Positions 1-64,000 of a DNA stretch of 64,000 nt are shown one piece after another (positions within the stretch are counted from its first letter, which is position 1; each line of letters begins with the position of its first letter). The stretch comes from a virus (Duplodnaviria > Caudoviricetes), in IMG/VR virus record IMGVR_UViG_3300028734_000003, positions 159-64,158 of that record; one strand, written 5' to 3'. The position numbers were made by a program, and so were the translations under genes. Below the pieces are notes generated by a model. It was not told the DNA's origin, made no database searches, and was given only the letters and a program-made list of their open reading frames with translations.

Positions 1-2
1 CA

Positions 3-53
3 CATTTCCAATGGTCACAAAGAGCATCATACTCTTGGTCTTTTGGAGCTTAA
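3..53 (+). CDS. C-terminal end of a small virion-associated protein (partial)
   Basis: Frame 3 reads HFQWSQRASYSWSFGA*. This W..RAS.. ending is typical of the family whose N-terminal half begins at 63849. Confidence 0.55.
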   Translation, partial: HFQWSQRASYSWSFGA

Positions 54-121
54 TTTATCTATTAACTATCAACTTATGTTTAAGGTAAAAAAACTGAGAA
101 ATTGTTGCTGACAACCAGCAT

Positions 122-1219
122 ATGCAATCATCTATTATTGGTGAATTTAAATGATTTTTCCCAAAAGAAAAGGATTGTCCGCCTCTAAATGAGAATGACT
201 CTGTATATCTTTTCTCTACAAACACTACCTGGACTATGGTTGATGGTAAATTGATAGATTCTTGAAGAATCGTTATTGCCCAAACCGTCGTTCCACAAGT
301 AGTCGTTTCTTTGGATGTTATCAAAGAAGCTCTCAATCAATTTGACTTCTTGCAACTCATTCAAGAAAACCCAGAGCTTTCATCATTTTTACGCTGAGAA
401 GATGGTAAATCTGTGAAGATTGACGAACTTGCAGCTTATCTAAAAAATGATCCAGAATTTGTAAAATCAATCGAAGATAAGCCAGGTAAAGAAGGTAAAA
501 CATTACCTGCACAAGAACCAGATCTAAAACTTCTTGCAAAAGAATTAAAATCTGATCCAACATTTATTGAACTTACAAAATGAAAGGATGCTGACAAGGT
601 AATCCCAGTATCTTTGAATGATGTTGTCCTATCTCTATCTACAAACGAAACATTCATAAATAAAGTAAAAAACTCTGTATCATTGGCAGAAATTATTGCT
701 GAGAATGTTGTAGAAAAGGTTGCTGACTGTTTAGCAAATGACGAAGAATTTGTACAAGCAACAACAGGTGCTCCTGGTAAAGAATGACCAAAACCCACAA
801 AAGATAAAATAATGGAAGCTGTAAAAGAAATTGATATTATTAGCCAATTAAAAGCAGATTCAGAATTTATTGAAATGTCTAAAGGAGAGACTGGAACTAG
901 TGTTAAGGCTGAAGAAGTGGCTGCTATCTTAATGAAAGACCCAACGTTCCTAGAGACTGTTACAGGTAAAACTGGAGATACAATATCTAAAGAAGAAATA
1001 TCTGCTTTCTTAAAAGCTGATCCAGAATTCATTAAAATGACTACTGGTCTTCCAGGACAAACACTTCCAGGTAAGCCAGGAGAACCAGGAGAGGGAATAT
1101 CTATTGGACGATCTCCAGATGGTAAAGCCGATTTCACTACAGAAATGAAAGATGGTGATAAATATATCTCTATCGGACTTGGTAGAAGAATACCAATAAT
1201 ATTTAGATCAATACCATAG
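122..1219 (+). CDS. Repeat-rich fibre-like protein (helical repeats with short collagen-like linkers); true start may be ATG 76
   Basis: Open with TGA=Gly from 89 to TAG 1217-1219. About 8 repeats of the type L-K-x-D-P-x-F-I-x-x-T-x-G, plus GAPGKEGPK and GLPGQTLPGKPGEPGEG. Confidence 0.7.
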
Positions 1220-1225
1220 TTATAT

Positions 1226-3982
1226 ATGACAAGAGGCTGAGTTAGTTACGATAAATTTCTCAAAAAAATAAGAGAGAGTGACGACACAGCCGTTATAGAA
1301 TTTACTAATCTTTGAACAACATATTGAGAATATATTTGACAAATAGCTCTGGTACCTGGATATTGAATATATTCATGGAACGGGGCTATTTGGGAATCGG
1401 AAGGATGAGTAGCAGATCACTCAGCACTGAGTAATCTTGATTTTGAACACGCTGGACATATTGGGTTCGCTAGTGAAGCTATGCTGGCAGACTATGAAAA
1501 GTTAGCAATTTCAACAACGCAAGATAACCTCTATACAAACCTAATACCTAATAACCTACTCATACCAGATAGAACCTATTTGGTAAGTTTATGAAATACC
1601 TGAGAACATTATTATATACAAGCTATCACAACAAATACATACAAAAGTATAAGATGAGCATCAAATCTAGTAGCTTATGAGCAAACACAATTTGATTTGA
1701 ATTACGACAACGAAGCGGGTATTCAATGGAATCGTTTTGATAACCGAGAAAAACAACAGGTTGTCATTTGAACCACAACAAATGAAAATCAACGAGGTAT
1801 TGCAAACGCAACAAAAGTGACTTTGCATTCTTCTGCGTATGATATGTTCAAACGAATTTCAACAACACCTTGACAGGAATATACATTTTCAATTCGAGCA
1901 AAATTCGACACAGTGACAAATCTTGCGATCACAATTATGAAAAACTATTTGAACTGGAACAATTGCGTATATTATACAGAAACAAACAAAGACTGACGAC
2001 AGAAATGTTCGGTTAGATTCGTTGCAGAATCAACATCAACTGTTGTATTTATTGGTTGAATGAACAATGTTTGATGATGAGTACAACAAACGGCAGGTGA
2101 CTGTTATCTTTGTTGTTTCAAATGTGAGGCTTCTGAAAAAACAGATGAGATGAACTTCTTGCCTGTCTTTGATTTGCTTAGGTGAGTTGGTAGAGATTAC
2201 AGAGCAACAGCAGGTTGGGTAAATAATGGTTGAACGATATCAGTAGGATATCCAGATGTTGTCTGAATCAAAAGAGCTTCTGCAATCACATTTGCATCAG
2301 AAGCACAAGCACAAATGGGACATTATTACAATATCACAAATAGAGTTCCAACACTTGAAGTAGGTAAGAATTACATATACGGAATTCGATTAAATAAAGT
2401 TTTTGCTTGAAATATAGTGATCACGCTTGCAGATAACAACTGACGGTTTGAATATCCACAGCTTGTCGATAACAATCTTTGATGACGACAATACTATGAA
2501 TTAGAGTTCACATATAAATGAAATTGATTGTTCTTTTATTTTTGAGGTAGTGGAACGATCAGACAAACAGCTTGAACGTTCTATATGTATTGACTTACAC
2601 TTAGACAAGCACCACTTCCACTTGTTTCGTGAGTACAAGAGATTATTGCAGGTGATTGAATAGCTGTTGATAATTCAGACCCGTCTGCTCCAGTAGTTTC
2701 TGCTGTTGGTTGATGAAATTGAGCAGTCCAAAGATTCGAGTATTGACAACTGACTATTGCAAAAATGTCGTGACAAATTATTCCAACAATGTCAGCTCCA
2801 TGAGTAAATGCTTGATATAGCAACAAAGACATCAACATAAATCTGCAAAAATATCTGAAATGTTTTGTTGATATCATTGAATATCAAGATTGATATGAAG
2901 TACAAAGACGAAACAAAATGAGATTTGCAAATCAAGATGACATATTTCTTTTCTGTTCAGAAAATTGTTCAACATTTTATAATGAAAATGATGTTCTTTC
3001 TTATTCAAACACGATCATCGCTTTGTTCTATGATATTATTGATTGAAGTATTCAATGAATCCCGAAAGTCAACGGTTGAAATACTTTCTATCAAATGCTT
3101 AGATGAAAACACAGAGAACTTGCAACCAATGCTTGACTAAGGCACTTACAAATAGTTTGAAATGAAAATCAAAGAATGCCCGAGCCGTTGTATTATCAAT
3201 TCATACAAATGGCTTTCGATAATATGTTCCCAGAGCGATGACTTGTTGCCGAAGAGTGATTGTATGATTGACCAATTGGAAGTTTATTTTGGTTCGGTGC
3301 TTCATACAAAAAGAGATTCAATCTTTTGAAAGCAAACGCAACCATACACCCGATTGAATCATCTTGAAACAGCAGGTCATATCTGAAATATGACTTAACT
3401 GTTCCAGAATATACACGAGCATATTGAGTTTGAGATAGCGAACGAACAATTGACCAATCAAGAACAAAATATATTTGATATGAAATGGGAACTTCTTATT
3501 GATTGGAACTTGCAAATAAAAATGAAGTTTCAATACTTATACAACGAATAAAAGCAGAAAACAAGTCAATTGTTATTTTGTATTGTTTGACAAGACAAGA
3601 CCCAATCAATGCGTCACAAACACAATATGCAATCTATGTGAAGCCTGTGAATATAGATACTTTGTATGTTTCACCTTTTGATGATTCGTTGTATGAATTG
3701 AACGCTGTTTGTGAGTGAGATTTGCAATATCAAAAATTACAAATACCGTATTTCAGTAGCATGACACCGAAAGAATTCGATTCTGTGAGAATACAAAAAT
3801 GAAATCGATATGCTTTGTTATGAAGAAAACAACGGAATCTTAGATGATCAAAAAATCCGTCTGTCAGATTTATGCTTCGCAGATTGAGTGATTGAATGAT
3901 TTGACCAATCACAAAACAAAGAGCAGTCTTTGAGTGACCACGCAGAGATAGACCAATCACGACAAAAATATCATATACATAG
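1226..3982 (+). CDS. Tail fibre / receptor-binding protein with two carbohydrate-binding-module-like domains (~918 aa)
   Basis: One frame with TGA=Gly. Contains DHSALSNLDFEHAGHIGFAS (common in fibre proteins), CBM-like motifs TPGQEYTFSIWAK..GWQKCSVRF and VGKNYIYGIWL..GGWQYYELEF (W=CGA), and an IIAGDGIAVDNSDPSAPVVS linker. Confidence 0.75.
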
Positions 3983-4004
3983 TTCAGATATGTTTGCAGG
4001 TGCG

Positions 4005-4107
4005 CCCAGTTGATGTCGTACTCCATATTTGAGCAACCATATTATTTGCTCACAATACTGGGTTGTCCATTTAATTCAGCCCACATTATCCCCCTAGAAA
4101 TAGGGGG
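4005..4107 (+). ncRNA. Structured intergenic RNA segment (nested hairpin plus GAAA-tetraloop hairpin)
   Basis: CCCAGT(4005-10)/ACTGGG(4057-62) encloses TGAGCAA(4030-36)/TTGCTCA(4046-52). CCCCCTA-GAAA-TAGGGGG at 4090-4107. Confidence 0.45.
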
Positions 4108-4113
4108 TGAAAC

Positions 4114-4156: not shown

Positions 4157-4199
4157 TATTCAGTAATAGATGCACAGCTTTAGTTCTTAATCTTATAGG

Positions 4200-4541: not shown

Positions 4542-4578
4542 TGTAATAAGAATATGTTTATATTATAAATTCAAGAGT

Positions 4579-5745: not shown

Positions 5746-5746
5746 T

Positions 5747-6385
5747 ATGACAGCTGAGGAACAAATCACAGCGATTATGAAAAATAGATTTTTTGAACCA
5801 AAATATTTTCCAAAAAAATTCAAAATAAAATCGAATCTCAATAAAAATGTAAAACTTCACACACAGACAGGACCAAACTGTTGGATGTTTGCTGCATTTA
5901 ATAATGTATCGCTAGATTATGGTATTTATGTAGATGAGGCTAAGGCTCAGAAATTTCTGTGACAGTTCTGAATGAAGCTAGAACAGTGATGATCTACCGC
6001 AGCAAGTTCTATGATGCTCTCTGAATATCTATCTATAAATGGGAAAGATTATGTTGTTTATTCTCTAGACATACTTACACAAATTAAAATATTTGCAGAT
6101 ATGTTAAAAGCTGGACGATGGTTTATTTATTCTAGAGATTGTTCAAAGGAGGTACTACAAGACATAGCCGACAACGATGTGATAGATTTGATTCATAAAT
6201 GAACCACTAGCCCACACGCAGTAAATATTTGATGACAATTTGGCGTTGGTTTACAGGAACTATGAAATTGGGGAGATGAAAATAAATATAATGATTTCAG
6301 ATATAAAGATCCTCAGCTATTTGTCAAACTTGTAAAATCATGAATGATAGAGAGAACCGTATTATTTATTTCCGAAAGACAATAA
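5747..6385 (+). CDS. Papain-like cysteine peptidase
   Basis: QTGPNCWMFA (oxyanion Gln, catalytic Cys), PHAV (His) and GNWG motifs in one TGA=Gly frame. Confidence 0.7.
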
Positions 6386-6387
6386 AA

Positions 6388-6843
6388 ATGGATATATTAA
6401 ATAGTATTGAATTATTGGTTGTACCATTCAAATGAAAAATTAAATCACTGATGGCTGTTGTAAAGGGCAAATACCCAAATCTTGCCGCATTTGAAACTAT
6501 GCGTACAAAAAATAGACAAAAGCGGCTTGTAGATAATGATAAGTCATGGACTATGAATTCTCAACATCTTGTTGGGAAGGCGGTTGACTTTGTATTTCTA
6601 AATAAGAAAGGACAACCAACATGGACAGGAGATTACAAATATCTACACTATGTTGGATACATGTGCTGAGTTACACCAATCATTGTGAAAGGGAAGTTAC
6701 TAGAGCAATGTCATCTCCAGGATACGAATATTTCTATCCAGGATCAAATAGCAATAAACAGCGATCGCTGGCATAAAGCTACGGAACAATGGGAAAAAAA
6801 TCTTCTACACATGGTAAACAATGAATTGAGAAAATACATATAG
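6388..6843 (+). CDS. Endolysin, peptidase M15 (L-Ala-D-Glu endopeptidase type)
   Basis: ETMRT..RQ..L....SWTMNSQHLVGKAVDF and a downstream EQCHLQ zinc-ligand motif. Confidence 0.85.
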
Positions 6844-6898: not shown

Positions 6899-6899
6899 A

Positions 6900-9800: not shown

Positions 9801-10770
9801 ACCATAATTATTGTTTTTTTGCTATCTCATCTATCAATCATATCTAGTATTTCTTGTAGTGTAGAATAACATCTAAAACAGGACTCGTGCATATTATTAC
9901 CACAAACATTTATAGTTTTGGTTGTAGTTGGATATGTTTTAATTAGTTCTAATCATACTGGTGGTGTATTACTAGTTGTTTCCATCTATAAGGTTGTTAG
10001 ATAGTAAATAAATTAGCATTAGTCATAATCTTTCTACATCCAGAGATAAACAAATCTGTCAAAGATTTCATTCTTTACCTCCACTTTCTATGTATGATTT
10101 CCATATCAATGCTTCTCTTCGTGAATTTTCTCAGATTTCTGCTTTCTCTTTTACCCATTCTTTTAGATACTCCATAAGTTCACTTGCTGTATAGGCAGGA
10201 TATGATTTATCTCACTCTTCTTTACATTTTCTCCATACTTCATATATTTCTACACATTCTTTTAGTGTCATCATCTCACAAAATTCAATCCATTCCCAAT
10301 GACTATCCTTACAAAATCATAAGTCAGATAGCTTCTTTGAAATTTCTAAATTGGTTACCTGTTTAGCTAATTCCATCTGTGGATATGTTAGTTAGTAAAA
10401 TATATAGATAAATAAATCAGAATTATTCAAGGTAAGATTGTATATGTAGTTCAGTTATTTACGGATGGATATATTGTTCATCATATAATAATACCCAACC
10501 CAAACCAAATAAGCGCTACTCATATCATAGATTTATTTTTCTTCTTCATTGTTGCACAAAAACATAATAATAGAATAATAATATAAAAGTATTTTTGAGT
10601 CTAAACTCCTAGTATACTCTATTTACTCAGTGCGTATCTACCACAAAACTTTCGTCTAATGGTAGTATCATGAAGCGCATAAATAACAATAGCGATAATA
10701 TTCATAATCAGATCATAACCACTTCTGGCCAATCCATCTGATTTTTAATCATTCGTTCTGGTTTTCGCAT
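6900..10770 (-). other. Block of small hypothetical genes (some with CxxC motifs, some membrane proteins)
   Basis: Closely packed short ORFs in the recoded code, each with an AT-rich leader. No function recognised. Confidence 0.55.
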
Positions 10771-11663
10771 TATTTATTGTTAGGAAATAAAACTTCTGAT
10801 ATGAGTACATAATCTCAAGCAGGCCATTTTATTTTTTCAATAGCCTCTAATCATTGCATTCATATTCACATCCATAGATCTAGATGTTTTCACTTAATGG
10901 CTCATCATCTATCTCTACAAGTCACCCATCAATATCATTCAATCTTAAACTTAGTATATGATGGGAACTGTTCTCAACAAGCTACCATAAGTCCTGCTTC
11001 TTCGTTTGTTAGTATTCATCAGAACGCCGGAAACAAACATCAGCTATTTCATATATTAGATGCTCAACAATTCATTGTGACATCTGCTTCATATGATTTT
11101 CATTTATAGTATCTCTCTTGTCACTTTATTGGAGAATAGTATCTTGTTATTTCATAATAGCCAGTTATGCCATTTGATTTTTTTATTGTCGTAGGTTTAT
11201 TTTTGTCCACGATGATACCTGCCTTTAGAGGGTCAAAATATTTCCCTGGGCATGTTGATCACCATGATCGGTGTGGTTTTATTTTAGCATCTGGGAATTG
11301 TGTTCTTAAAACCTGGAGCAATATGTTCAGTGCTTCGTATGCTTCTTGCGTTGGCTTCTCCTTATTAAAGTTTCAAACCAAGGCGACACCTATACTTGTG
11401 CTGTTGTTCTTTTTGTTGTGGAATCAAATATTGTTTATACATCTAGTCTGCACAACTGTTCAGTCGCTAAATACTAGATAGTGATATGCAACATCTGTAT
11501 CCTTACAAGATTCTGGTTGTCATGGAAATCTTTTTGAATGTCACCTAGAGATATTATCAACTACTTTCTGATAATCCACTCAATCATTTTCCGTATTATG
11601 GATTGTAATTTCCGTGATGTTTCTAGTAAAAGCAGTTTTACCTGTTACTGTAGCAGGTTTTGA
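10770..11663 (-). CDS. N-acetylmuramoyl-L-alanine amidase (Amidase_2/PGRP-like) + 3D domain; no start codon of its own, -1 frame of the upstream ORF
   Basis: Amidase motifs ITIHNT, VAYHYLVFSDG, GFH..NNSTSIGVALVGNF, IKPH....STCPG, then 3D motifs ITRYYSP, VAC...FP..TKFKIEGYG..TCRDRGGAIKGKHLDLWMG. Confidence 0.85.
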
Positions 11664-14236: not shown

Positions 14237-15610
14237 TTACATAACGTTAACCGATAAAGATTTTACTAGGTCTTCTGAATATTTTTCCGGATCTCACCAT
14301 CACCTGCTTTTGTATGCTGCAACTCTTTGACGATATTGTAGATACATTGGTGTAACAATATCTGAGAAGTCTACCATGATTGGAAGTTTTTTTCAACTCT
14401 CAACTCTTAGAATTCTTCAAATCAATTGCTTGACAGTTGCTGAGAATTTCACTCACATGAAGTAAAATGCTGTATCGAGTTCTGGATAATCTACTCAAGC
14501 CTTTAGTGTTTGGTAGGTAGCTACGATCACTCAGTTTTTTCATCTAAGTTTTTCTATAAGCTCATCACGTTTCTGTGCCTTACTTGTATAGGAATAACAT
14601 TCGACTCACTGAGATCTAAGCTCTTCACAAACTCTATTGACCATTTCTATTCTGTCACAGAACACAACTCACATCCATCTATGCGCCATAGTTTGTTTAA
14701 CTATCTCGCACAGTTTACTTATTCTCTCTTGATGTTCAAGTAATATTTCTTGAAGATGTGGCCAGTCTCTAAACATCTCTATCCCATCGTTGTACCTATA
14801 AACTAGGACCTTTGGATTTGGCTGATGTCACTCGGCTATAATCTTTTTTCAAAAAACATACTCAAAAGAATTATTGTCAACATCATTACTTTCTGGTGTA
14901 GCTGTGAATCAAAAGAAATATCTACACTGGAATCTACAATAAACTTCCATTCTATCTGTAAACTCGCTATTCTTCTTTTTCTTTGGCCCTGTATGCACAA
15001 AGTCCATATGCGCCTCATCAATGATAAGCATCTCGAAATCTTGTTGTAACATCTCTCGATACTTGTTGAATGTAGGTCATACCACTATTGTAATATCTGT
15101 TGTTTTTGCTCCTGGTTTGTAGATAGATACTTTGTCTTTTCAAAAATATCATTGCATCTTTTTTAACATACCAGTGGCGATACCAACAAGGGGAACTACA
15201 ATTAGAGTGGGGACTTGTTTTTGAAATATAGTTGCGGCCATTACGATTGTCTTACCCCATCATTCTCTAGCGATTACGAGTCATGTCTTTCTAGACACAA
15301 GTTGGTCAACGATAACCTGCTGATAGTCATATGGTGTACAATCGAAACTGGGCAAATCTATCTTTCTTTCAGCATACTTGTTAGGTATTTCTTGATAGTC
15401 TCGTTCATATATCTGGTCAAGAACTCATTTTGGGAAAAAGATTTTTCATTCTTCAAAGCAAGACAGTTTATAGTGTTTTGCTCAGAAGAATCATTTTTTC
15501 TTCATCTTATAAAATTGCTTGTTCTTAGGCTGATACTTACTAACGAAAAGATTCATAACATCTGGAGATCAGAACGATCAGAAGATTGTAGTTCAGTTAT
15601 AGTAAAACAT
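14237..15610 (-). CDS. Superfamily 2 DNA helicase
   Basis: Q motif PYDYQ, Walker A AREGWGKT (first Gly = TGA), TLIVVP, Walker B IIDEAH; 457 aa. Confidence 0.85.
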
Positions 15611-16326
15611 TATCCTAGTCTTTTATCTAAAGCTGCATCATAATACTTTTTACAGAAACTTGCTAACTCACAGAACTTACATCAACTATTGAGATTCTCT
15701 TCGTGGATTCCAGTTTCTTTTGCAAACATATAGTTTTCTAAAACTTCATGTACTTTCTTTTGTGCTTCTTCTTTTGTGATATATCTCTTTACTTTACTGA
15801 GATGTACTCTTGCTGAGTTTGATTTCTCCATAGGAATATACTCAAAATATAGTCCGTCGATTCATAGATACTCACATGCTAAAAACGTATAGCCATAGTG
15901 TTGGAAATATTCATCTCGGACATCTCAACTCAAATAGATGTCAGCTTTCTTGCAGGTTTTGAAGTCAACCATATACCATTTTCAATCTACACAATATAAT
16001 TTATCTGCCGTCCCTTCTAGAAACAAGTCTTTATATTTGTATATGAATGGTGTTTCTGAATGTGACTCATCCGCTATTCATTCTATTGCTTTGTTCCGAT
16101 CTCTGATCTTTGTTGCAAGATTTAATCCTATCTGTCTCAATTTCATATCTGAATTGATATGATTATTGTAGTAGTCAAGCCATCTTGTAACATCATATCA
16201 TCTCGCTGCGTAGTGCTGTATTGTTCAAAAGAATAGATTCTTTGGATCTCCATTGAATTCTGTTTCAAAGAAAGCACGAGGACATTTTACAAAGTTATTT
16301 AATGATGACGCTCTTATGATTTCCAT
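15610..16326 (-). CDS. PD-(D/E)XK Cas4-like exonuclease with Fe-S cysteines
   Basis: SSLNNFVKCP, GT..H, EGTADK, VDFKT, Q...Y and a C-terminal CKFC.....C. Confidence 0.8.
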
Positions 16327-17106: not shown

Positions 17107-18333
17107 TTATTTTTTAGATTCTAAAGCTGTCTTGTATTTATTGAAGACGTCTGTCGCTTGAGAGAATATTGCCGTTCCTTCTTTCACTTGATGCTTCAAT
17201 CGGAATCCCTTTGTGAGTTCCTTGAGTCTAGTGATAGTGAGTTCTCATTTCACATCAAAGAAGTTTATATCTTCCTCAAACGTAATTACTGCTGGATCTC
17301 TAGGATCTGTTGTTTTTTCCTTGGGTTCTTCCACTGGAGCCGTCGGTTCTTCTTTCGTTGGTTCCGGCTTCGATACTGAATCCACGAGGGCTTCTGTTGT
17401 TTCTGGTACGACCGTCTCAACAATAGGGTCTTCCTTGACTGGAGCAACCTCTGCTGGTGTTTCTTTGCTAGCTTCTTTAGGTTCTCATTGCACAGTTCAC
17501 TTCTTGAATTCTTCGAGATTCTCAACGGTTTTCTTTGACTCATTGAAGAAGTTTGTTGCGGAAGTAAATAGTGGTGTATCTTTTTGGATGTTATAGTCTG
17601 ACCAGATACCCTTGGTAATTTCTTTGAGCTTATCCATATCTAGTTCTTTTGCTTTGAGTGACTCTTCTACTTTTCTTTTGTATGCTTCAATAACCTCTTC
17701 ATCTGTGACTTTTGGGGCTGGTTGTCCAGCAGATCATCCAGATTTTTTAGTTGCTGTCGCTGTATCTACTATGTCAGTAGGTAGGTCTTCTCCACGATAT
17801 ACATATAATCCAAGTCCATGCATTGAGATAGCTTTTGCAAATGCTCTTTGATATGCCTTATTGATTGACATTGAGTCAATACCTTGTACGGTAATATCAA
17901 TGTTCATTTTCTTTTGTCTATCGAATCTTGAGTAAATATATGCTTCTCTCTTCATAGCATCGTTTCTATTATTCATGATAGGAAGCCACGCTGTCTTTGT
18001 AATGTCATTGATCGTTACACTTACCTTAGCATATCAACCGAAGTCATCAATAAATCAAAGCGTTCCGTGCTCGTTTTCATGCCAATGATACGATGCTTCT
18101 GGATAGATTTTAAGCAACTCATTCCAGGCGTCAGCCCAAGAGATATAAGTGAGTCAATCTTTTTCTTCTGTCTCACAAGCAACTTTAGATAACCTTTCAA
18201 AGATAGATAAAACTCTTTGTTCTTCTTCTTTTTGTTTCACATCCTTAGCTTTCGCCTTGAATGTTTCAATCTTTTCTGGGAGCGTGTCTACTTCTTTAGG
18301 CTTTGCTCCAGCTTTCTTCGCTTCTTCTGTCAT
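17107..18333 (-). CDS. Sak/DUF1071-type (Rad52-like) single-strand annealing protein with a long acidic C-terminus
   Basis: LTYISWADAW, VSVTINDIT...WLPIMNNRN, INKAYQRAFAKAISMHGLGLYVYRGEDLP. Confidence 0.85.
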
Positions 18334-19229: not shown

Positions 19230-21551
19230 TTAAGAGTTTTGCAATCATGCTTTCGCTTTGTTACGAATAAAATCGTCTAGGACGTTCTCTAAGAAATGGT
19301 CTTTATTTTTGTTCCTTCTTAAGAGCGATATCAATCAATTATATATATGCTTGTGTCATTTAGTCAATAGTGTATTTAGCGATATAGATATAATATGTCA
19401 TCCGTCTGCGGTCTTTCATCCATACTCTTCCGTCACAGCGATCAATTGTCTTGTCAATTTTCTGAGTTCCTTTGGATCCAATACAGCGATAAACAAATCC
19501 ACTATAACATCTCCAGCTTCTTCTCTAACCTCAAGCGTATTCACTTTCATATTCGCTAGAGCCAATGCCATAACAAGATTTGATTTCTCATCACTTGCCA
19601 CGATGTATTTCTTGTGTTGGGTAAGCATATCATTCAAATAAGATATAACCGTATCATCATCACATATTCCATAGATATTGTTTACCATCAAGATCCACTG
19701 ACACGATTCATTTATTCTGGAATCGAAGTCACATATCTCCATAGCCCAATATTTATTTTTTATGTCGTTCAACTTTATTTTGCTTATATCTTTTGTCTTC
19801 TCATATCGTTCTTCGATAATAAGACTTTCTTTTATTTTGTCAATAGTTTTATGATTTCCTCTTCTGTATCTTTTCTGGAGATCCATCAACAATCATCTAT
19901 TTACTATAGAGGTGAATCATGGAATCCTTTCTCAAGATATAATAAGTGGACTATTGATTTCATATATCTCATTCATACCTGGTCTTCACTTGGCTGTGCT
20001 CACATTGTCATAGAACGCTCTAAGTACCACTTCCATCTTCTCATTTACATCTCAAGTAAACTCATCAATAAATAATGGTACATGATCCTTGGCTGCTGCA
20101 AGTATTGGTTGTGGTGATAATCACTGAGCAGAATAATATCTTGACGACTCTCTTGTGGAGAATCAAAATAATTCATAGATACAACTCATCAGTGTTGATT
20201 TACCTGATTGCGATTCTCAAGTTACTATAAGCAATGGCGTGTTCAATCCTATATTTCTAAACGATACACAGGACATTGCTCATAACATTCGTATGTAAGA
20301 TAGTGTTACAATAGCTGGGTCATAGATTTCTTTTAACATTGCGTGTGCTTCTTTCATTGTTATCTGAGGTTTGTTCAATGATGTTTTATATTCTTGTGAT
20401 ACAGTTACTGACTCGGACGTATCTCATTTCAACATCTCTCATCAATGGATAAACGCCTTGGTCTCTGGATAGTATCCGTTCTTGTAATAGACTTCGTTTG
20501 TGCGTAGCTCTCATTCTCTTTTGAGTTTATCCAGGCAGTCATAGAAATCCAGGATCTGTGTTTCGCTTCATCTATATGATAGTCATTTATTTAGATACCA
20601 GCGATTGAAAGCCTTTCTATCAATTTCTTTTGAAACAAATATAGGTTCCTTCTCTCATATGCTACACATAAAATATTCTCTTGGGCAGTCGGTAATTATA
20701 TTTTTGTTGAAGTCATAGATTGTCTTGGCATATCCAAATGGATTTACTCACTTAGTAAATAGAACGCTTTTCTTTTCTACTCACTCGGCATCAACACCGT
20801 AATACTCAACGCTATTTTTCAAGAATATAACTCTCTTATGTTTATCTAGCTGTACGGTTTTGCTTCGTTCTTCTTCTATACTTACATCATATGTTTTGGA
20901 CGATAGGTAGTTTTGTATCTTTTCTTTATTGACTAGCTTTTTTGTAATGACTGAGTAAACACTACCAGTCATATTCTGAGATGCATTTGAATTGAAGTCG
21001 AATAACAATCATCAATCAATAAATCAATTATAGTTTATTGATAGATCTTTGATAACATCCTCCATTGGAAGTGTCGTATTGATCTGTGTAATTATGTTTG
21101 TGTCTTCTCGATCTATTCATAATTCATTTTTGAAAGCCATATCTGCAATCTGTTTGATGAATCACAGATACGAAGAAGGAGCGGTCTTATTAGCCTCGAG
21201 CTCCACGAAGCCCTTCTTAACTGACTTCTCTCGTATGATAAACGAATTGGCATATTCATGTCTAGCCGGTCCAAATATTAAATTAAAGAACTTCTTATAT
21301 TGTTGCGATGACTTTATTTTTTTGGAAACGATTGTTGATACCTCATCAAAGATAAACATAATTCTATCTCAACAATCAAGGCTATATTTGAAATGTCTCT
21401 TCTTACGTTCCCAATCATCTGGCTTATCCAATATAATATATCCATCGTCTGGTCTCACATATACATTGATTCACTGCTGGTTTATTTCCTCAGCCTGGGA
21501 CCTGGTTATTTTTTCGTACTTTGATTTCTCTAGTTTGTAATATACGAGCAT
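19230..21551 (-). CDS. Putative replicative helicase / primase-helicase (SF3- or DUF927-like P-loop ATPase), 773 aa
   Basis: Walker A GESQSGKST (first Gly = TGA) and Walker B PLFIDE. The N-terminal domain is unassigned. Confidence 0.6.
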
Positions 21552-27242: not shown

Positions 27243-28079
27243 CTATCCATTCTTAATTTGTTTACCAATTAAAACAAATTGACTTGCTTTTTCTGCCCTA
27301 CCAATTGCTTGGAATAATTCTGTCTGGCGTCCTTCTTTTTGGATTGCCTTTGCTCGCCCTGCTATATATTGAGCGTGGTTATTGAGCTCGAAAGTTTGTC
27401 CTGCCTCTTGCATAAGAAAGCAAGCCCCAAATTCTGCTGTCAATTCCTCCTTGGAATAGTCTTCTCTGTTGTGTTGTCCTTGTAGACTTCTCTTGAGTCT
27501 GTTGTCTGCTCCTGTACTATGAATCATTTGGTGAAAGAAAGAAGCGTAGTAGTCTTGAGCGTCCTTGAAATCGTGTAATTTTGGCATTGTAATATAGTCA
27601 TCTCCTACATAATATGCTGGGTCTCCATACTTTTCTAAAATTTCCTCCCTTGCTAGGTATTCAATAATAACCATTTCTGCGTCATAAATTTCCTCGTGGT
27701 TATAGGTGCTTTCGTCTTTGAATTCCGCTCCCTCTTGTTGATCGAGATTGAATACTGTATACAATTTTACCATAGGAATTCTCTTTGTATCGTCTAGCTT
27801 GTCAGTGAAAAACTGTCGAAAATATACGGTCGTCCCTTTTTCTCCTTTCTTTACTTGTCCCCCTGCTTCTGCTATTTGTTTGTATGTTGCCCGTCTGTTT
27901 TCTTTGTAGCTTTCCTGGTTCATTTTGTAGGATAGAATAATTTTATTCATACCGTGGTATTTTCTCCCGTCCTTTGCATTTCTTGCCCCTCTAGTATTCC
28001 AAAGTTGCTGTCGTTTTCCTGGATTTTCCATAGCTTCTAGCACAGATTCTGTGAGCTTTTCGATGATTTCCTTTTTCAT
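27243..28079 (-). CDS. ardC: ArdC-like antirestriction protein (ssDNA-binding domain + zincin-like domain)
   Basis: N...G.KYHGMN, WATYKQ, GGQVKKGEKG, YTVFNLDQ, D.I.MP, HQMIHSTG...RL.R, YSKEELTAE, YIAGW (Trp codons are CGA/CGG). Confidence 0.85.
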   Translation of the reverse strand: MKKEIIEKLTESVLEAMENPGKRQQLWNTRGARNAKDGRKYHGMNKIILSYKMNQESYKENRRATYKQIAEAGGQVKKGEKGTTVYFRQFFTDKLDDTKRIPMVKLYTVFNLDQQEGAEFKDESTYNHEEIYDAEMVIIEYLAREEILEKYGDPAYYVGDDYITMPKLHDFKDAQDYYASFFHQMIHSTGADNRLKRSLQGQHNREDYSKEELTAEFGACFLMQEAGQTFELNNHAQYIAGRAKAIQKEGRQTELFQAIGRAEKASQFVLIGKQIKNG

Positions 28080-33087: not shown

Positions 33088-35169
33088 ATGGCTGTAGATT
33101 TTACAAACTTCTCGAATGTTACAGATAAGAACTGAATATTGAGAGTGCTGGGGAACGCCATCAGCACCTCTTTTTCTATTAACTGAGATATACTTGATAA
33201 CCCATTTATCTTATCCTCCACGCAATGGGATAAAATAAATCCGTTGATAAGAGATGACTTCTCGTCATCACTCATAAATAGGAAAAATATTGTCTATGCA
33301 GACAATCCAAAGATCAAAAGTCATAAGTTTTTCCTCCTAGATGGAATAAAACTTATCGAATATATCGACAGAGAAAGCACTTGAGTAGTGGAATGAGAAC
33401 AACCACTAGATGAAGATACACTGAAAGAGTCTATATTCTACCTAGCAAAATCAAAGATACTCTCAGATCTCCAGATAACCATCCTCAGAGAACTATCTAA
33501 GCAGTTCTATATCTACAAAGATGGGTCGTTGGTTCTAAGAGAGCAGGAACAACAGGCATTATTCAATGCAGATGATCCAGAACACGAAAAAATCAGATCC
33601 ATATTAGATCTCCCATTTGAAATCTACTTCAACGCCATCCAAAATTTTCCGAAAGAATTAGTAGACGATGTTGTTATAGCCGAAGAACATAAATTTTTCA
33701 AGAACGATAGACTCCCAGTGAAGATTATTCCTCAGTTAGTCCGTGAGACTATGGTGAATGACGATGGTGGGACTATCAAGCTCTCCTATTGGCAGATGTA
33801 TAAGGCCTATCATTCACTCAGAAAGAGATTTGTTTGGAATGCTTGTCCTAGACAATCGTGAAAAACGTTTGATGCGGTTCGTGACTGTTATCAAAGACTT
33901 CTTTCCAAAGACTATTACCGTATTATTTATATCTGTGAGACGGAAGCCGCCTTTAAGCAGCCACGGGATTACTTTGAGTCTCTATTGAAGAAGGCTGCCG
34001 ATTACGGAATCATAGAACTCAACAGAAGTAACTTCACCATCAGGTGTCCTTTTGGTTGATCGACTGGAAATACGCTTACTTTCGTGTCTTCATTCTCTAA
34101 ACTTGGGCCTAGATCTTTGAAGGGTAACTACTTTGTCTTCGATGAAGGTGGAAAGATTAAGACATCTACATGGCTCGATGCTTTCCCAATTATCAATAAT
34201 AATAATGCGGGCGTTTTGGTAAACTCTACTATCTTCCGAGAAATGAAGAAGCTCGATTCGGAGCGGTTCTATAATGAACTCCTTGCTATTGAGATGTGAT
34301 TTAAGCAGGATGAGGACGGTACCGATGAATGGATGGCCCTCAGAGTGAATATTGATCAGATTGAATGGCTCACACCAAAGCAAAAGAAAACAACCAAAGA
34401 TACTTTGCGCCCATATCCAAATAGATTTTATTGCGAACTCTATTCTCAACTACCAAAAGCAGACTCAACAGTTGTCCCTGAAGGATTCTTCATCATGTCT
34501 GACGAAGATAAAATTCAAAAGGACGAGTTCTTACTCCTTGGTCGGGATCTTGCAAAGAGGGTTGATACCGCAGGTATGCTTATGCTTTCTCAAAAGGACG
34601 GTATTGCATTTCGAGAAAGTAGACTCAGAGGATATACATATACCCAACAAATAAATATCGTCAAAGAACTCAAACAGATGTATCCAGGACTTAAGGTGTG
34701 TGCCGATATATCAAATGAAGAGCAGGTTATTGAAAATAATCCAGGACTTATCGACTATCCTATCAAGTTCACCTCCGCTACCTCATGATTCAAGAAGGAA
34801 TTCAGAGAATGAGTCACAATCTACAGTGTTGGTAAGGAGGTATTGGTCAATAACTTCGTAAGTATGGCCGAAGAGGGTCAAGTAAAAGCGCTTTCTAAGC
34901 TGGAAATGTTTAGAATGGAAGCAGAAAATTACATAGGGAAAAGAAATGGTAGGGGTTGAATGAGTTATGAAGCCCAGGCTGGTACTGATGATCTTATGTC
35001 AGCTATGCTTTGTATTGCCTGGATATTCAAAACAACATATCTTGAGCCGCTTCGTATTTGGGAACAGCAAAGAGAGGCAGAAAAAAGGGCTCTCGAAAAT
35101 GTTGAAAGAGATGACTATGGAAGAACTATAAAAAGAAAGAAGAATTGATATTACTGAAATATTTATTAA
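33088..35169 (+). CDS. terL: Terminase large subunit with a long N-terminal extension
   Basis: Walker A PRQSGKT (Gly = TGA), LKG..FVFDEG Walker B, EWFY, nuclease GWDLAKRVD (Trp = CGG) and TDDLMSA. Confidence 0.9.
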
Positions 35170-35196: not shown

Positions 35197-36759
35197 ATGT
35201 CAAAAACTGTATTACTATGAGATGACGCTCGTAAAAAATTATTTGAAGGAATGAAAATAGTTTCTACTGCCGTTATGTCTTCTATGGGTCCTTGCGGAAG
35301 GAATGCCGTCCTTGGAAGATTCGATAGATCCCCTGTTGTCACAAATGATGGGGTTACAATCGCCAGAGAGATAAGTTTGCAAGATCCTGTAGAAAATATT
35401 TGAGCATCCATAATTAAGGAAGCCGCAGAGAAGACAAATAAGGAGGTAGGTGACTGAACTACTACCACCACTTGTCTTACCTACGCAATTGCAAAACATG
35501 GCCTATCGGAACTGCAAAACGGAACAAATCCGTTCGTATTAAGCAAAAATCTACATGAAATTGGGGATAGTATCGTTGAAAATATAAGAAAATACACAAA
35601 AACAATTAAACATACATCCCCAGAGGTAAAAGATATTGCCACCATATCTGCACAGGACGAAGAAATTTGAGAAACTATAGCAAAATGTATCAAAGAAATA
35701 TGACCAGATGGACAAATTTCTGTTGAGATTTCAAAGGAAATAGGTATCAAAGAGGAATTGAAAAAATGATACGTCATTGATGCTGGTTTGGTATCACCAA
35801 TATTTATGCTCGATGAAGAAAATCTTCAATCAGACCTAAGTGATGTAACAATATTGGTTGGTAAATGAGAGCTATCCGATGCATGAGGGGTGTTAATTTG
35901 AGTATTAGAGGAAATGCATTATGAGGGTAGAAAAAATTTACTAATTATGGCAGATGAGGTATCGTGAGGTGCTCTAGATGCTATAATAAAAAATAATAAA
36001 AGCTGAATGTTTAATATAATTGTAACATGATTACCATCTACATGACAAAACTCTGAAGATATCTTAGAGGATGTTTATACTGTGTGTTGTTGGTGAGAAA
36101 CAATTTTAGAAAGAGGATTCTCTGGCCAGATATGACGTGCAGGAAGGGTAGTATCTTGAAAAGATTCAACAGTTATTGTGGATTGATATTGAGAAGATGA
36201 TTGAATAAATGAACGCATATCTATGTTAAAAAAGAAAAACTTAAAAGAAAAAAATGAGTATCGAAGAGAAAAGGTAGAAGAGAGAATCTCAAGACTTTCT
36301 TCTGGTGTTGCTATTATTTATGTTGGATGCCAAACAGAAATGGAGGCAGTCAATAAAAAATATAAAATCGAAGATGCAATATGTGCTACGAAATCAGCAA
36401 TAAAGAACTGAATTGTTATTGGTGGTGGATTTGCCCTTGTTAGAGCCGCAACAGAGGTACCTGTTCCAGATTGATTTGGTGTTGCATGGAGAATACTTAT
36501 AAACGCAATAAAAGAGCCAGCAAAAACCATAATATATAATGCGTGACGAGATGCAGAAAAGATTATACATCCGTGAGATATAAAATCAGAATTAGTTTTC
36601 AATTCCAAAACATGAGTATACACACCATGGGATGAATATAAAATAATTGATCCGGCAAAGGTTGTTGAGTGCGCTGTCCAGAACGCAATATCAGCTGCTT
36701 GTATGTTTCTCACTACTGACGTTGTTGTATTTGAAACAGAAGATATAATAAGTCAATAG
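35197..36759 (+). CDS. groEL: Chaperonin GroEL (divergent, no GGM tail)
   Basis: [52 protein letters not shown]...[32 protein letters not shown]. Confidence 0.95.
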
Positions 36760-36855: not shown

Positions 36856-38916
36856 ATGAAAATAGTAACTGACTTTATTGCAAACGATAAGGGGTATACT
36901 AGAGTTTCACAGATTTTTGATTATTATCAAAAAAACGTTTGGCCTAAATGGATAAAAGACTACCAGTCTTATGCTGGAGATATGACTCCTAGAAAAGCCT
37001 ACATAGATACTACTTGGCAATCAAATATTTCGTCTGGAATTACAAAGAAAACGATCAAAACGTTTTTCGCACATATCTACGATAATCTAATTAAGTTCTA
37101 TGTTTCTGGAGCATCTGAATCAGAGCAAGACAAGGAACAGGCAACACTTTGTGAGGAATATCTCATGTGGACATACTCAGTTTCAAAGACAAAAAGATTT
37201 TTGCATATGCAAATCCTTGATGCTTTGATTATCGGTGAGGGATATGGTAAAGTTGGATTCAAAACCGTAAACAAGACTAAGAAATATGTTGTCCCTAAGT
37301 ATGATCTTAAGGGAAATATCATTTCATGAGAAGTAAAAACTAAAAAAATATTTAAACAGAATGGTTCTTATGAATATATTTCTCCATTTGACTTACTTAT
37401 CGACCCAGCAGCCAAAGATCCTTATGCTGCTCCAGTAAAAATCAAAAGAGAATTGGTACCAGAATCCAAATTGACTGAAAAATATGGAATGTTTTTCCAA
37501 TTACCAAAAGCAAAATTAGAAAAAGCAATGAATGACCCAAAAATGTTTGCCACTAAAGACTGGACATACCAAAGAAACCAAATTCTTGTACAGGATTGAC
37601 TTACGGATATCAACAGTTTCAATGGATCATACTCATTTGAAAAAAACAAGTATGTTGAAATGGTAGAGGTTTGGATTGATGATGGAATGGATGGTAGATT
37701 AGAACTTTGGATAAACGGATATTGTGTATATAACGCAATAAATCCATATCCAATCGAAGAAGACCCATTTACATATCTATATTTCTCACTAGAGGGTGGT
37801 ACAATTAGAGGTACTGGACTTGCTGGGCTACTTCGTCCATATGACGACATGGCTTCTGCGTTTTTGAACGCATATATTGACGACCTAAAAATAAAAGCAA
37901 AACCTATTCTCCTTAGAGTTGCTGGAAAATCTCAAATAGTTTCCGGGAATAACGAGGTAGAATGGTACCCTGGACAAATTATAACCGTTGAAGATGTAAA
38001 TCAACTTCAGCCATTAAATATCGGTGGTGCAAATGTGCAAGTTATCGACTTGGTAAACTTTATGGAAAATGCGGCCTTTATGGCAGCCGGTGTTAACGAA
38101 ATAGTTATGGGATCTCCTATCTCAGGAGGTAAAGTACCTAGAGTTGCTGGTGATGTTGTCAATAGAGTACAAGGATTTAAGGTAAGGCTTCTCTCTTTGT
38201 TCGATTCTTTGAACGATGTTATGAGCAAGACTGGTAAATTCTGGATGGAACTTGGAAACATCTACATGCAGAAGGAAACGGTTATGAAAATCTTCAATGA
38301 TGAAACTAAACTTTGGACTTGGAGAAAGATAAATGCAGAAAATCTTGATGGTGAGTTCGATATCATCTTCGATACCGAAGCGCTCAAGACAGCATACAAA
38401 GAAATTAGAATTGCTCAGCTTACTCAGTTCCTATCCGTCATTGGAAATAATGCAATTGACCCATCTACTGGTATGCCTGTGATAAATTTCGCAGATCTTA
38501 TCAGACAATTGGCTCAATATCTTGATTTGAAAGCTAATTTCATCTATACGGATAAAGAGGCAGTAGCTAAAATTGAAAAAGCAGAACTACAAAAAATAAA
38601 GACCCAAGAAAAAGTACAAGCAAAAACAATGGAAGCAAAGGCTAGATTGGATGCTAAAGCGGCACCAGCACAACCTGCTCAACCAGAACAGTCTGCCGCA
38701 GGATCCGTAGATATTGCACAAGTTGTTAAAAATCTTGCTGCTCAATGAGGTGGACAACCATCACCAGAACAGCCAGTTCCAGAAGAACAAGCGCCAGCTC
38801 CAGAAAATATTGCAGATGTTGTTGCACAAGTAGCTGGAGATCAAAACCAACAAGCCGTTCAACCAGAAAATATACAAAAAACAGCCGTGAACGATATTTT
38901 AACCCCTCAAGACTAG
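36856..38916 (+). CDS. Portal protein (P22-like/podoviral type)
   Basis: 686 aa after TGA read-through; position downstream of terL; DALI.GEGYGKV, SPFDLLIDP and NPYP motifs; helical C-terminal region. Confidence 0.8.
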
Positions 38917-41013: not shown

Positions 41014-42360
41014 ATGTCTTTTAGCGTAACTAATGATTCTCCTACGGCTGTGTTGAAAACACTCCCACAAGTAGGTGCGTACTCTTTCGAGGCGTGGAAA
41101 AATTACAACAAAAAGCTCGGATCTTGGCTCTTTGGAGACCAATTGTTCGGAACCTCTACAGCAAAAAATGTTAGCTTCAAAAATTTGAAGATTGACGCTG
41201 TAACAACTAAGGATGGATATGTAGTTGAATGGTCTACTATCGCAATGAAGAGAGCATCAACAACAACAAGTACAGCAGGTGCTGGAACTGTTAAAACATT
41301 GGCAGCTACACAAGGTTTCTCAAAGGGTGATAAGATCATCTTCGAGGCTATTGATGGAACTGAAACATATGCTTTCGTAGCATCTGTAGATTCAACTACA
41401 CAAATCACTTTGGCAGCTTCAATTACAACTGCCGCAACTGATCTTGTTAAGAGAGTTGCTTCTGCTAAGAGAGTTGGAGATGTTGTTGATAGAACAGATT
41501 ACGATCCTACTAGAAACAAGACATCAAACAACTTCCAAACATTCCAAGCAAAATTCTCAGTTACTGACCAAACACTTAATTCTCATATGGATCTTTACTT
41601 CAGAGGTGGGCAACCAAATCCAGACGAAGCAAAATCTACTAAAGAAATTATGCTGGAAGGAATCAATAACTACCTCCAAATGAAAACAGCTCAAAAACTC
41701 GGAAACGAAATTTTCGGAGATATCGCAGCAACATTCTTCAAAGGAAAGAAAGATACTTACACAGATGGTTCTTCTAAAGTAAGATACTATGCTGGAGGAT
41801 TGGCTGAAGTAGTTGATACAGTTACTATTTCTGCTTCTGATGAAGGTGATGCAATTCTAGAACAAATCTACAACGCTACATACGATGTATACAACTACTC
41901 AGCTGCATACGGAAATGAAAAGGTTGTTATGATTGGAAACTCAGCATTTGTTAAGAAATTTGGAACATTGAGACAAAACAATGTACAAATCCAATTGTCA
42001 TCTGCTCCAACTGAATTCGGATTCGGTCTCCAAAAGATCAACTTCCCACAATTCGACTACTTGATGCTTGGTTTTGAACCATCTCTTGACGAATGTGACA
42101 TCAACGCACCAGTAGCATACGTTATTCCTTTGGATCTTATCGGAGCGTACAGAAAAATGTACCACGGTTTGAACGAAAACTTCGCTCCTGAAATGGGTAG
42201 CCCAGATATCCTTATCAAGAAATCAGTTACTGATGAAGATACAATGGATACAACTACTCTTCTCATGATCTACGATCTTACTTTCATCTTCGGAGGAAAC
42301 GATTCAGCTACTAACTTTGGTGCTGGAAAAGGATTGTACAAGAAAATCATCTTGTCTTAG
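41014..42360 (+). CDS. Major capsid protein
   Basis: 448 aa after the scaffold gene; strongly biased codon usage; N..QTF and RYYAGGL motifs of podoviral capsids; followed by a terminator. Confidence 0.8.
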   Translation: MSFSVTNDSPTAVLKTLPQVGAYSFEAWKNYNKKLGSWLFGDQLFGTSTAKNVSFKNLKIDAVTTKDGYVVEWSTIAMKRASTTTSTAGAGTVKTLAATQGFSKGDKIIFEAIDGTETYAFVASVDSTTQITLAASITTAATDLVKRVASAKRVGDVVDRTDYDPTRNKTSNNFQTFQAKFSVTDQTLNSHMDLYFRGGQPNPDEAKSTKEIMLEGINNYLQMKTAQKLGNEIFGDIAATFFKGKKDTYTDGSSKVRYYAGGLAEVVDTVTISASDEGDAILEQIYNATYDVYNYSAAYGNEKVVMIGNSAFVKKFGTLRQNNVQIQLSSAPTEFGFGLQKINFPQFDYLMLGFEPSLDECDINAPVAYVIPLDLIGAYRKMYHGLNENFAPEMGSPDILIKKSVTDEDTMDTTTLLMIYDLTFIFGGNDSATNFGAGKGLYKKIILS

Positions 42361-62900: not shown

Positions 62901-63498
62901 TATATGAGGTGTTGCTACTTATATAAACACTGCAACATATACGGCAGCAAACGTTAAGATAGAATATGTCAAATCATCTGGAGCAATAAAATGATTCTAT
63001 CGAAATTGAACTGCTTGGGTTCAAATTGGAACAACACAGACGAATGTATTTATATGAAATCCATTTATAAAACTTGAGCAATATTGATCTGCCTATACTG
63101 GATATGGATGAGTATTAGTAAATTGATATTTCAATATAGATAATATGTATCTTACAAATTATATTTATTCATCATTGACCCCATCCGCAGTTTGATGAGC
63201 TATGTTTCCATACATATCCTCTCCATTATTCCATAATGTATTGTTATCTTTATGTAATTCAGATTATGCCTATAAAGTAGCAATATATTGAGCAGCAGCT
63301 GAACTGAAGGCGGTGTGACAATATCCAAGGGTAACTACATATTGAATAACAAATAACTTCAAAAATATGACAGAATGAGCTACTCAATATCTAAGTAACA
63401 ATCCTGGATGAATATCTTGAACAGCAGGAACAAATAGCGTGACTGTTGGTAAAGCTAGATACACAGATAAACTGGCCATCAAAGATCTATTGGCATAG
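59938..63498 (+). CDS. Tail fibre / receptor-binding protein 2 (~1186 aa)
   Basis: Same N-terminal anchor as 57594; internally duplicated domain (..TK...CTAT.A.I....L.TA.FS.NVATF..). Confidence 0.75.
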
Positions 63499-63523
63499 TA
63501 TTTATTCAATAATCTAAACCACT

Positions 63524-63730
63524 ATGATTACTAACGCAGAGATAATGAAAAATGCTATAGCCCATGGAATGAAGAAAGGGGAAAAATTGCAGCCTAGGGA
63601 CACCTTCGCTGCAATAATGCATGAACGAAAAAATGGTCTCCTCAAAAGAAAAGATGGGACCGTTGTGAAAAGCATTGAAGAAGCCAAAGCGATTGCTAAT
63701 TCTGAAACAAAGGCTAAGACATGAAAATAG
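63524..63730 (+). CDS. DUF6496-like small basic protein
   Basis: IMHEWKNGLLKRKDGTVVKSIEEAKAIANSE (Trp = CGA). Confidence 0.6.
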
Positions 63731-63755
63731 TTTTATTTCTTAACCAATAACCAAA

Positions 63756-63782
63756 ATGCCATGCAAATGAAAAAAGAAATAA
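63756..63782 (+). CDS. 8-aa micro-ORF MPCKGKKK
   Basis: ATG CCA TGC AAA TGA AAA AAG AAA TAA, preceded by a leader resembling the capsid gene leader. Confidence 0.4.
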
Positions 63783-63848
63783 ATATATTGATATTCATCA
63801 ATATATCTATATGTTATGATTAGTTTTTAAATCTTACCAAAATACACT

Positions 63849-64000
63849 ATGTCAGCAGAAGAGAAATACGGTATGTGGATGGGAAGAAATCCACAAAAAA
63901 TTGAAGATGTTGTTGTTGGTGCGGTAACCACTACATACATCGGAGAATGTCCAGCACCTGCCGCAGGATCTACTGTAGCAGATACAGACGCTAAATGGAG
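63849..64000 (+). CDS. Small virion-associated protein, N-terminal part (truncated by the window)
   Basis: MSAEEKYG...TTTYIGECPAPAAGSTVADTDAKW; runs off the end of the window. Confidence 0.6.
   Translation, partial: MSAEEKYGMWMGRNPQKIEDVVVGAVTTTYIGECPAPAAGSTVADTDAKW

Follow-up and report, generated by a model that had tools for sequence, protein, structure and literature searches.

The closest described systems are bacteria, and a small number of phages, in which codons have changed their meaning. Absconditabacteria read UGA as glycine and both CGA and CGG as tryptophan (Shulgina & Eddy 2021, PMC8629427), and the same assignment is given for Absconditabacterales in the accessible text of PMC13092985 and of a preprint (bioRxiv 10.64898/2026.04.02.715157). 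These bacteria are described as low in GC, with AGA as the main arginine codon and, in most species, CGA below 37 and CGG below 7 per 10,000; tRNA(UCG) and tRNA(CCG) serve CGA and CGG (PMC8629427). Among viruses, code-25 phages and prophages have been described whose predicted hosts are Absconditabacteria and Gracilibacteria (Liu et al. 2023, PMC10746230). Two phage assemblies predicted to read AGG as methionine, with no cognate tRNA, come from samples that also hold AGG-recoded Bacilli (PMC8629427). Stop-recoded phages are predicted to infect standard-code hosts (bioRxiv 10.1101/2021.08.26.457843), and some alternatively coded phages encode suppressor tRNAs, release factors, or tRNA synthetases (PMC10746230). 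Here, we analyzed 64,000 bases (the window) of a 64,158-bp phage contig, IMG/VR record IMGVR_UViG_3300028734_000003, contig positions 159..64158. We consider it very likely that the contig represents, in full, the genome of a tailed phage with an SU10-type portal and capsid, and that in this phage only TAA and TAG are stops, with TGA standing for glycine and CGA and CGG (together, CGR) for tryptophan.

Compared with the code of Absconditabacteria, as far as the accessible text on that group goes, the phage shares the three reassignments, a low GC content, the scarcity of CGN codons, AGA as the main arginine codon, and an excess of CGA over CGG. It differs in being a virus that lacks any decoding machinery and in having TGA as its commonest glycine-type codon. 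CGG occurs at 6.0 per 10,000, and CGA, at 41.6 per 10,000 over all open reading frames (ORFs), lies at or above the host ceiling of <37, a value measured differently, at Pfam-aligned positions. Like the phages of PMC10746230, this one carries dense in-frame TGA and is coherent only with TGA as a sense codon. The code of those phages was judged by coding density under code 11 versus code 25, and the main text of that study makes no mention of CGA, CGG, or arginine. The large terminase (TerL) of the present phage had no relative in the phage, IMG/VR, and metagenome collections searched.

The AGG-to-methionine phages, as described in the text available, resemble the present phage in matching a host reassignment of a sense (arginine) codon, in the absence of a cognate tRNA, and in their reliance on host tRNAs. 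Codon, amino acid, and host phylum are different, and the present phage combines changes in two sense codons with one in a stop codon. A preliminary description of this sequence had called sense-to-sense reassignment in phages rarely documented. The AGG-to-methionine phages are a precedent, so the phenomenon as such is not new; no published phage with CGA/CGG read as tryptophan was found, in a literature search that lacked most subscription journals and supplements. As in stop-recoded phages, standard gene calling fragments the genome. Unlike those phages, this one has none of the machinery that some of them encode, and it appears to share the code of its host. That a phage should follow the code of its host is to be expected; the present case documents this for a stop codon and two sense codons at once.

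The window has a GC content of 34.3%. The contig starts and finishes with the same exact 75 bp as a direct repeat (at the window end, 63926-64000), and because the same 75 bases stand at both contig ends, they suggest a circularly closed, complete assembly. When TAA and TAG were taken as the sole stops, a greedy choice of ORFs of at least 60 amino acids gave 77 ORFs spanning 92% of the window. These are arranged in three strand blocks (plus, 122-6843; minus, 6878-29239; plus, 29642-63730). Removal of 11 ORFs opposing the strand blocks left a reduced set of 66 ORFs and 18,291 codons.

TGA was found in frame 585 times in this reduced set, in 60 of the 66 ORFs, and was the most frequent glycine-type codon (585/1,315). 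Counts in the 77-ORF set were TGA 612, GGA 346, GGT 276, GGG 99, and GGC 43, a TGA share of 44%. All of the motifs in which the preliminary description had placed TGA at invariant glycines are present: GD-TGA-TTT in GroEL (35455-35457), the Walker A motif PRQS-TGA-KT in TerL (33859-33861), ARE-TGA-WGKT in the helicase, TGA-ESQSGKS in the primase, and DR-TGA-TGA-AIK-TGA in the amidase/3D endolysin (10902-10907, 10890-10892). When GroEL was aligned to the Thermus GroEL chain 4v4o_A (E = 1e-86) and the alignment was read by eye, TGA stood opposite glycine at 14 of 24 sites and opposite tryptophan at none; the other ten faced D, K, R, P, K, T, T, D, L, and I. Against a viral GroEL with 26% identity, TGA faced G at 8 of 22 sites, and GGN codons did so at 12 of 25. 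In the helicase, the TGA inside Walker A and the one just before it were both opposite glycines of XPB (2/2), and three of four aligned TGA codons in the amidase were opposite glycine. A log-odds tally over 38 TGA sites gave G +17.5 and W −15.1 nats. Because of the GroEL, helicase, and amidase alignments and this tally, the reading of TGA as glycine is secure at the level of sequence comparison and TGA as tryptophan is excluded, which bears out the earlier proposal.

To the remaining two codons, ArdC offers the cleanest test, because it belongs to a large family and its gene has no TGA. Its four CGR codons, which the preliminary description had assigned to conserved tryptophan sites, lie exactly as quoted: CGA23 at 28011-28013, CGG63 at 27891-27893, CGA88 at 27816-27818, and CGA242 at 27354-27356. 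An exhaustive HMMER search for homologues yielded 150 representatives, from which 5 longer than 450 amino acids were dropped. The remaining 145 were aligned to the window ArdC with X placed at the CGR codons, so that the query was unbiased. W was the commonest residue in exactly five columns of this alignment. One of them is TGG in the window (27999-28001; W in 127 of the 145 homologues) and the other four are CGR, with W in 137 at CGA23, in 107 at CGG63 (F 22, Y 13), in 89 at CGA88 (Y 29, F 21), and in 138 at CGA242. The earlier assignment thus holds for 4/4 CGR codons, and for four random positions of the 278 all to fall in those columns, P = 2e-8. Among the 138 non-recoded homologues, W was found in 134 at CGA23, in 86 at CGA88, and in 136 at CGA242; the CGG63 column held W in 103, F in 22, Y in 13, and R in 0. 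At the near-invariant arginine columns 194 and 197 (R in 142 and 144 of 145), the window uses AGA. In the solved ArdC structure 6i89, CGG63 and CGA242 both match W, and CGA88 matches G. At the DNA level, 160 ArdC loci from IMG/VR and metagenomes, all standard-code and ≤39% identical, had TGG at the four CGR columns in 156, 126, 107, and 160 cases; the query in this search held W at CGR, which might slightly favor W columns.

Arginine was found at the ArdC W columns in only 6 of the 145 homologues, which rank 1, 3, 4, 5, 9, and 13 by E value. The same six show W at glycine positions of the family, for instance in the KKGEKG and HSTG motifs. Because W stands at their glycine columns, these six would be products of same-code genomes that were translated with TGA as tryptophan. 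Judging by these sequences, the recoding extends beyond one contig and characterizes a lineage.

The reduced ORF set contained 76 CGA, 11 CGG, and 136 TGG codons, with CGR in 37 of the 66 ORFs. With TGG alone, tryptophan makes up 0.74% of codons, and with TGG and CGR together, 1.22%. A Codetta-style tally was made over the 12 CGR sites with a standard-code column (ArdC 4, tail fiber 5, amidase 1, GroEL 2), recoded relatives being excluded. It gave W +21.0, Y −3.0, F −3.7, and R −18.6 nats for CGR, and W +16.8 vs R −14.4 for CGA only (11 sites). The controls behaved as the standard code predicts (TGG to W, GGN to G, AAA to K, TAT to Y), and AGA, AGG, CGT, and CGC gave R +15.7 over 39 sites. This small-scale version of the Codetta-type inference that had been proposed as a check therefore returned TGA as G and CGR as W. 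The accompanying claim of a genome-wide match stands for the distribution of the codons and for the 12 informative sites in four genes, and does not extend to all 87 CGR codons individually; that all of them are read as tryptophan is what we infer.

A homology-free test scored the eight residues flanking each codon by W-versus-R log-odds trained on standard-code phage ORFs. Mean scores were 0.178 for TGG (n = 137), 0.142 for CGA (n = 69), and −0.058 for the other arginine codons (n = 507), so that CGA differed from arginine codons (p = 0.018) and not from TGG (p = 0.81). The Trp-like fraction of CGR contexts was estimated at 0.71, with an interval of −0.03 to 1.92. A 20-way neighbor classifier was rejected, as AT-rich composition swamped the signal and N or K topped most codon sets.

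Further evidence came from the 918-amino-acid tail-fiber-like protein, which was aligned to P0005, a distant standard-code homologue (pairwise E = 1e-10) in which the collagen-like glycine repeats are intact. CGA224 (1895-1897) and CGA258 (1997-1999) were opposite W in this alignment, as was TGG244. The TGA immediately before CGA258 (1994-1996) was opposite G, and CGA190 (1793-1795) was opposite F. The first of these codons is that of the YTFSI-CGA-AK motif, which is present as previously described. In the recoded relative P0004, 3 of the 13 tail-fiber CGA sites read W.

TerL was compared with two recoded relatives. In P0002 (68% identity), the eight window TGG sites read R at five, W at two, and F at one; the TerL CGR sites read W at one of five in P0002 and likewise at one of five in the near-identical P0001, where a single CGG/TGG change is the simplest explanation. 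CGG293 and CGG486 each read W in a relative. At 66 aligned AGA, AGG, CGT, or CGC sites (P0002 34, P0004 32), the relatives showed R at 46, K at 9, and W at 0. E-CGG-FY (34264-66) and G-CGG-DLA (34543-45) had been offered as conserved TerL tryptophan sites. Both codons are present, but with no significant alignment to any standard-code TerL they are not confirmed as conserved Trp sites of such proteins; among the recoded relatives, G-CGG-DLA reads W in one and E-CGG-FY reads R in both. Searches for relatives allowing codon-level comparison returned none for TerL in IMG/VR (a single protein; alignment A1) or in metagenome contigs, none for TerL, primase, or tail fiber by tblastn against GenBank phages, and none for a conserved 83-amino-acid tail-fiber stretch against IMG/VR.

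Several observations count against this decoding and bear on its rivals. Translation of TGA as tryptophan (code 4), the assumption behind public gene calls for the lineage, is scarcely conceivable. It would accord with the W found at TGA positions in the database proteins of the phage and its relatives, and with TGA at amidase residue 13 (11541-11543), which lies opposite the tryptophan of the WH motif in T7-type amidases and is the sole TGA seen facing Trp. The GroEL alignment and the TGA tally speak against it, TGA occupies the glycine positions of Walker A in TerL, helicase, and primase, and under this code Trp would reach ~4% of residues. Plain code 25, with TGA as glycine and CGA/CGG remaining arginine, draws on more of the contrary observations. 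Amidase CGA104 (11268-11270) comes right after a zinc-ligand histidine, in a column that holds H, R, H, and H in four phage amidases and K in 6srt; tryptophan would be unusual in such a basic column, and either the position tolerates it or the codon is a misread ancestral arginine codon. Several CGR codons also lie within basic stretches (QR-CGA-NKMR, RKQ-CGG-NLR) and read R in P0004, and the contexts of CGG are Arg-like in the neighbor test (−0.113, with a small n = 12). Plain code 25 is nonetheless very improbable, as it leaves unexplained why all four ArdC CGR codons fall in the only W-topped columns that lack TGG, why two further CGA codons face W in a standard-code tail fiber, and why TGG is exchanged with an apparent R at five of eight sites in a 68%-identical TerL when no other arginine codon faces W in 66 sites; the pooled CGR tally opposes it as well.

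An intermediate position, in which CGA means tryptophan while CGG or some CGR sites are still partly arginine, is easier to defend and still improbable. It could arise from a competing host tRNA-Arg(CCG), or from mistranslated ancestral arginine CGR codons in recently acquired genes. Amidase CGA104 and the wide interval on the Trp-like fraction fit it, as does the complicated history of CGG in the sister group Gracilibacteria (accessible text of PMC8629427). The evidence for CGG is also thin: one standard-code W column (ArdC CGG63) and two apparent CGG-to-W exchanges, next to the Arg-like contexts. Other points weigh against the three-codon reading at large. The W residues in P0001, P0002, and P0004 may stand for TGA rather than TGG, those records being translated with TGA as W. 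Six CGR columns say little: in the tail fiber, CGA210 is opposite P and CGA174 opposite L, with W beside a gap (uninformative columns); the two GroEL CGA codons (36262-64, 36547-49) lie in variable columns, position 356 being A in the PDB chain and L in the viral GroEL and position 451 Y and C, and are uninformative; helicase CGR 185 is opposite A and peptidase CGG62 opposite E/K, again in variable columns. Without ArdC, the pooled tally is weak (8 sites, W +3.8 vs R −1.6). Against partial reassignment, R is absent from the CGG63 column among the 138 non-recoded homologues, CGG293 and CGG486 are W in a relative, and a U34 tRNA(UCG) would read both codons, an argument made in PMC8629427. Overall, we conclude that CGA as tryptophan is well supported and CGG as tryptophan probable, and AGA, AGG, CGT, and CGC, by the same comparisons, behave as arginine codons.

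The phage brings no evident means of decoding of its own. ARAGORN, run for tRNA and transfer-messenger RNA, found none on the window and none on the whole contig in circular mode, in agreement with the preliminary description. An Rfam scan gave 0 matches at gathering score, and a Pfam scan of 50 ORFs turned up neither release factors nor tRNA synthetases nor other translation factors. Because the phage brings no decoding machinery, it would rely on that of its host: UGA would be read by a host tRNA-Gly(UCA), with no competition from RF2, and CGA and CGG by host tRNAs with UCG and CCG anticodons charged with tryptophan, the identity of these host tRNAs being deduced. The published host code (UGA to glycine, CGA/CGG to tryptophan in Absconditabacterales), invoked earlier as background, matches the accessible text of PMC8629427. 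Since this is the only group reported to combine these reassignments, the host is most likely a member of the Absconditabacterales (SR1) living in peat, as judged from the published host code alone. A host outside this order that uses the code as described, such as an undescribed Gracilibacteria-related clade, is rather unlikely. The link to Absconditabacterales is through the code only, no evidence tying SR1 to peat as a habitat was found, and CGG is predicted to be tryptophan in some Gracilibacteria (PMC8629427), all of which would suit another host; the taxa listed by Atlas for ArdC gave no host hint. In the accessible literature, CGA and CGG as tryptophan together with UGA as glycine are reported for Absconditabacteria only, and CGA dominates the recoded tryptophan codons here (76 vs 11 CGG), which favors an Absconditabacterales host.

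Public protein predictions do not reflect this code. The records for the phage and its relatives (P0001-P0004, P0156, P0006, P0008, P0009, P0010, P0014, and P0018) were made with TGA as Trp and show R at Trp columns. In the phage's own tail-fiber record, P0003, W stands at 59 of 59 TGA codons and R at 15 of 15 CGR codons. Databases thus hold mistranslated proteins for an entire recoded lineage of ArdC-bearing elements. TGA-as-Trp calling gets ~3.7% of residues wrong: of 18,291 codons, 585 for glycine come out as Trp and 87 for tryptophan as Arg. Code-25 annotation would also mistranslate the Trp sites, as had been anticipated, with table 25 misreading 39% of Trp-type codons.

Use of the reassigned codons is uneven along the genome. 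TGA makes up 0.445 of glycine-type codons genome-wide, and 0 of 35 in the candidate capsid gene (P = 1e-9), 3 of 43 in the portal gene (P = 7e-8), and 0 of 20 in ardC (P = 8e-6). The capsid gene likewise has CGR at 0 of its 3 Trp-type codons, and the ORF upstream of it (40071-40985) has TGA at 0 of 11 glycine-type codons and no CGR. In ArdC, TGA is absent, yet 4 of 5 Trp-type codons are CGR. At the other end, TGA accounts for 66-81% of glycine-type codons in the endolysin, helicase, and primase genes and in two tail-fiber-like genes (the 918-amino-acid one and 59194-59928). This pattern looks like selection against reassigned codons in the most heavily translated genes. That it also serves as a translational throttle or timing device, beyond mirroring the host, is a tentative idea that we regard as doubtful. 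Small ORFs by the strand switch (26228-26476, 28665-28889, and 29642-29845) also lack TGA.

Features of the window and the reassigned codons counted in them
Feature	Coordinates	Strand	Basis and codon counts
Tail-fiber-like protein, 918 amino acids	1226..3982	+	59 TGA, 13 CGA, 2 CGG
M15C-type peptidase-like protein	6340..6843	+	weak PDB matches
Amidase_2 + 3D domain endolysin	10770..11579	-	Pfam; 23 TGA, 1 CGA
DUF3127	12978-13286		Pfam
ResIII/DEAD helicase	14237..15610	-	Pfam; 25 TGA
PD-(D/E)XK nuclease	15610..16326	-	Pfam
Sak single-strand annealing protein	17107..18333	-	Pfam
DUF927-type primase/ATPase	19230..21551	-	Pfam; 30 TGA, 5 CGA
SNase	23531-23911		Pfam
ArdC (ArdcN + zincin-like metallopeptidase)	27243..28079	-	Pfam; 0 TGA, 4 CGR
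GroES (Cpn10) homologue	32017..32367	+	Pfam
Large terminase, TerL	33088..35169	+	Terminase_6N, weak match; 5 CGR, 8 TGG
GroEL homologue	35197..36759	+	Pfam; 24 TGA, 2 CGA
SU10-type portal	36856..38916	+	Pfam SU10_portal PF23899, E = 6.8e-14; 0 CGR, 11 TGG
SU10-type major capsid protein, candidate	41014..42360	+	Atlas lead, no Pfam family
ORF of 3,174 amino acids	46671..56195	+	91 in-frame TGA, 7 CGA; no Pfam family

The genome encodes a portal, a large terminase, and a capsid candidate, the last called on an Atlas lead. This candidate resembled clusters of SU10_MCP (PF17236) in language-model features (0.97) and in predicted structure (TM 0.68-0.69), which is a lead and not an alignment, and it had neither a Pfam nor a PHROG match. 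The phage thus resembles SU10-like phages in its portal family and in a capsid candidate like SU10_MCP, and differs from them in that the capsid lacks a family match. In all, 0 of 10 structural or unknown ORFs matched PHROGs. The longest ORF in the table occupies a position that would suit a tape-measure or internal virion protein, and the GroES and GroEL genes stand on either side of the terminase gene. Two tail-fiber-like genes (57594-58823 and 59938-63498) share an N-terminal module of ~190 amino acids with 41% identity and one CGA at the same position; paralogues within the window offered this single conserved CGA/CGA site.

Relatives of the other proteins were few. Against PDB, the tail fiber gave 0 matches, the PD-(D/E)XK nuclease spurious matches only (E ≥ 0.012), and TerL nothing significant (E ≥ 0.45), so that its matches were left unused. 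Phage homologues of the helicase were just 26% identical, a protein search with the primase returned one near-identical and uninformative protein, and TerL and the tail genes had no recognizable relatives beyond two or three metagenomic proteins.

The genome was detected in 24 of 24 listed peat-metagenome runs, with a word share of 0.46-1.00 and one study code per run. It was essentially clonal in four of these runs, where contigs equaled the window over 1200-21199 except for 2 letters (5773 and 5776, in one contig); variants in this interval were uninformative on CGR or TGG, and gaps in coverage within it carry no information. At 5276-10357, deeper contigs (8.8-15.4) in three of the four runs match short pieces of the window and skip 184-4,435 bases between them. 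These contigs probably represent related phages that share small modules in this lysis and small-ORF region.

The mistranslation described above makes homology searches, structure prediction, and the building of families less effective in a group with almost no recognizable relatives as it is. With a complete and nearly clonal genome recurring in 24 peat runs, the search for a host and for peptides has definite samples to start from. If tRNA-Gly(UCA) and tRNA-Trp(UCG) were scarce or slow in the host, the abundant virion proteins and the anti-restriction protein would escape a bottleneck that holds other proteins down, and, were such a throttle real, the TGA-poor genes would also be correctly readable in cells with other codes. 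After the AGG-to-methionine phages, this would be the second case indicating that reassignment of a sense codon does not exclude viruses, which bears on the idea of code change as an antiviral escape. A phage that carries no tRNA and needs three non-standard decodings would be tied to hosts with the same code, so that the code itself may serve as a host marker, here for uncultivated Absconditabacterales.

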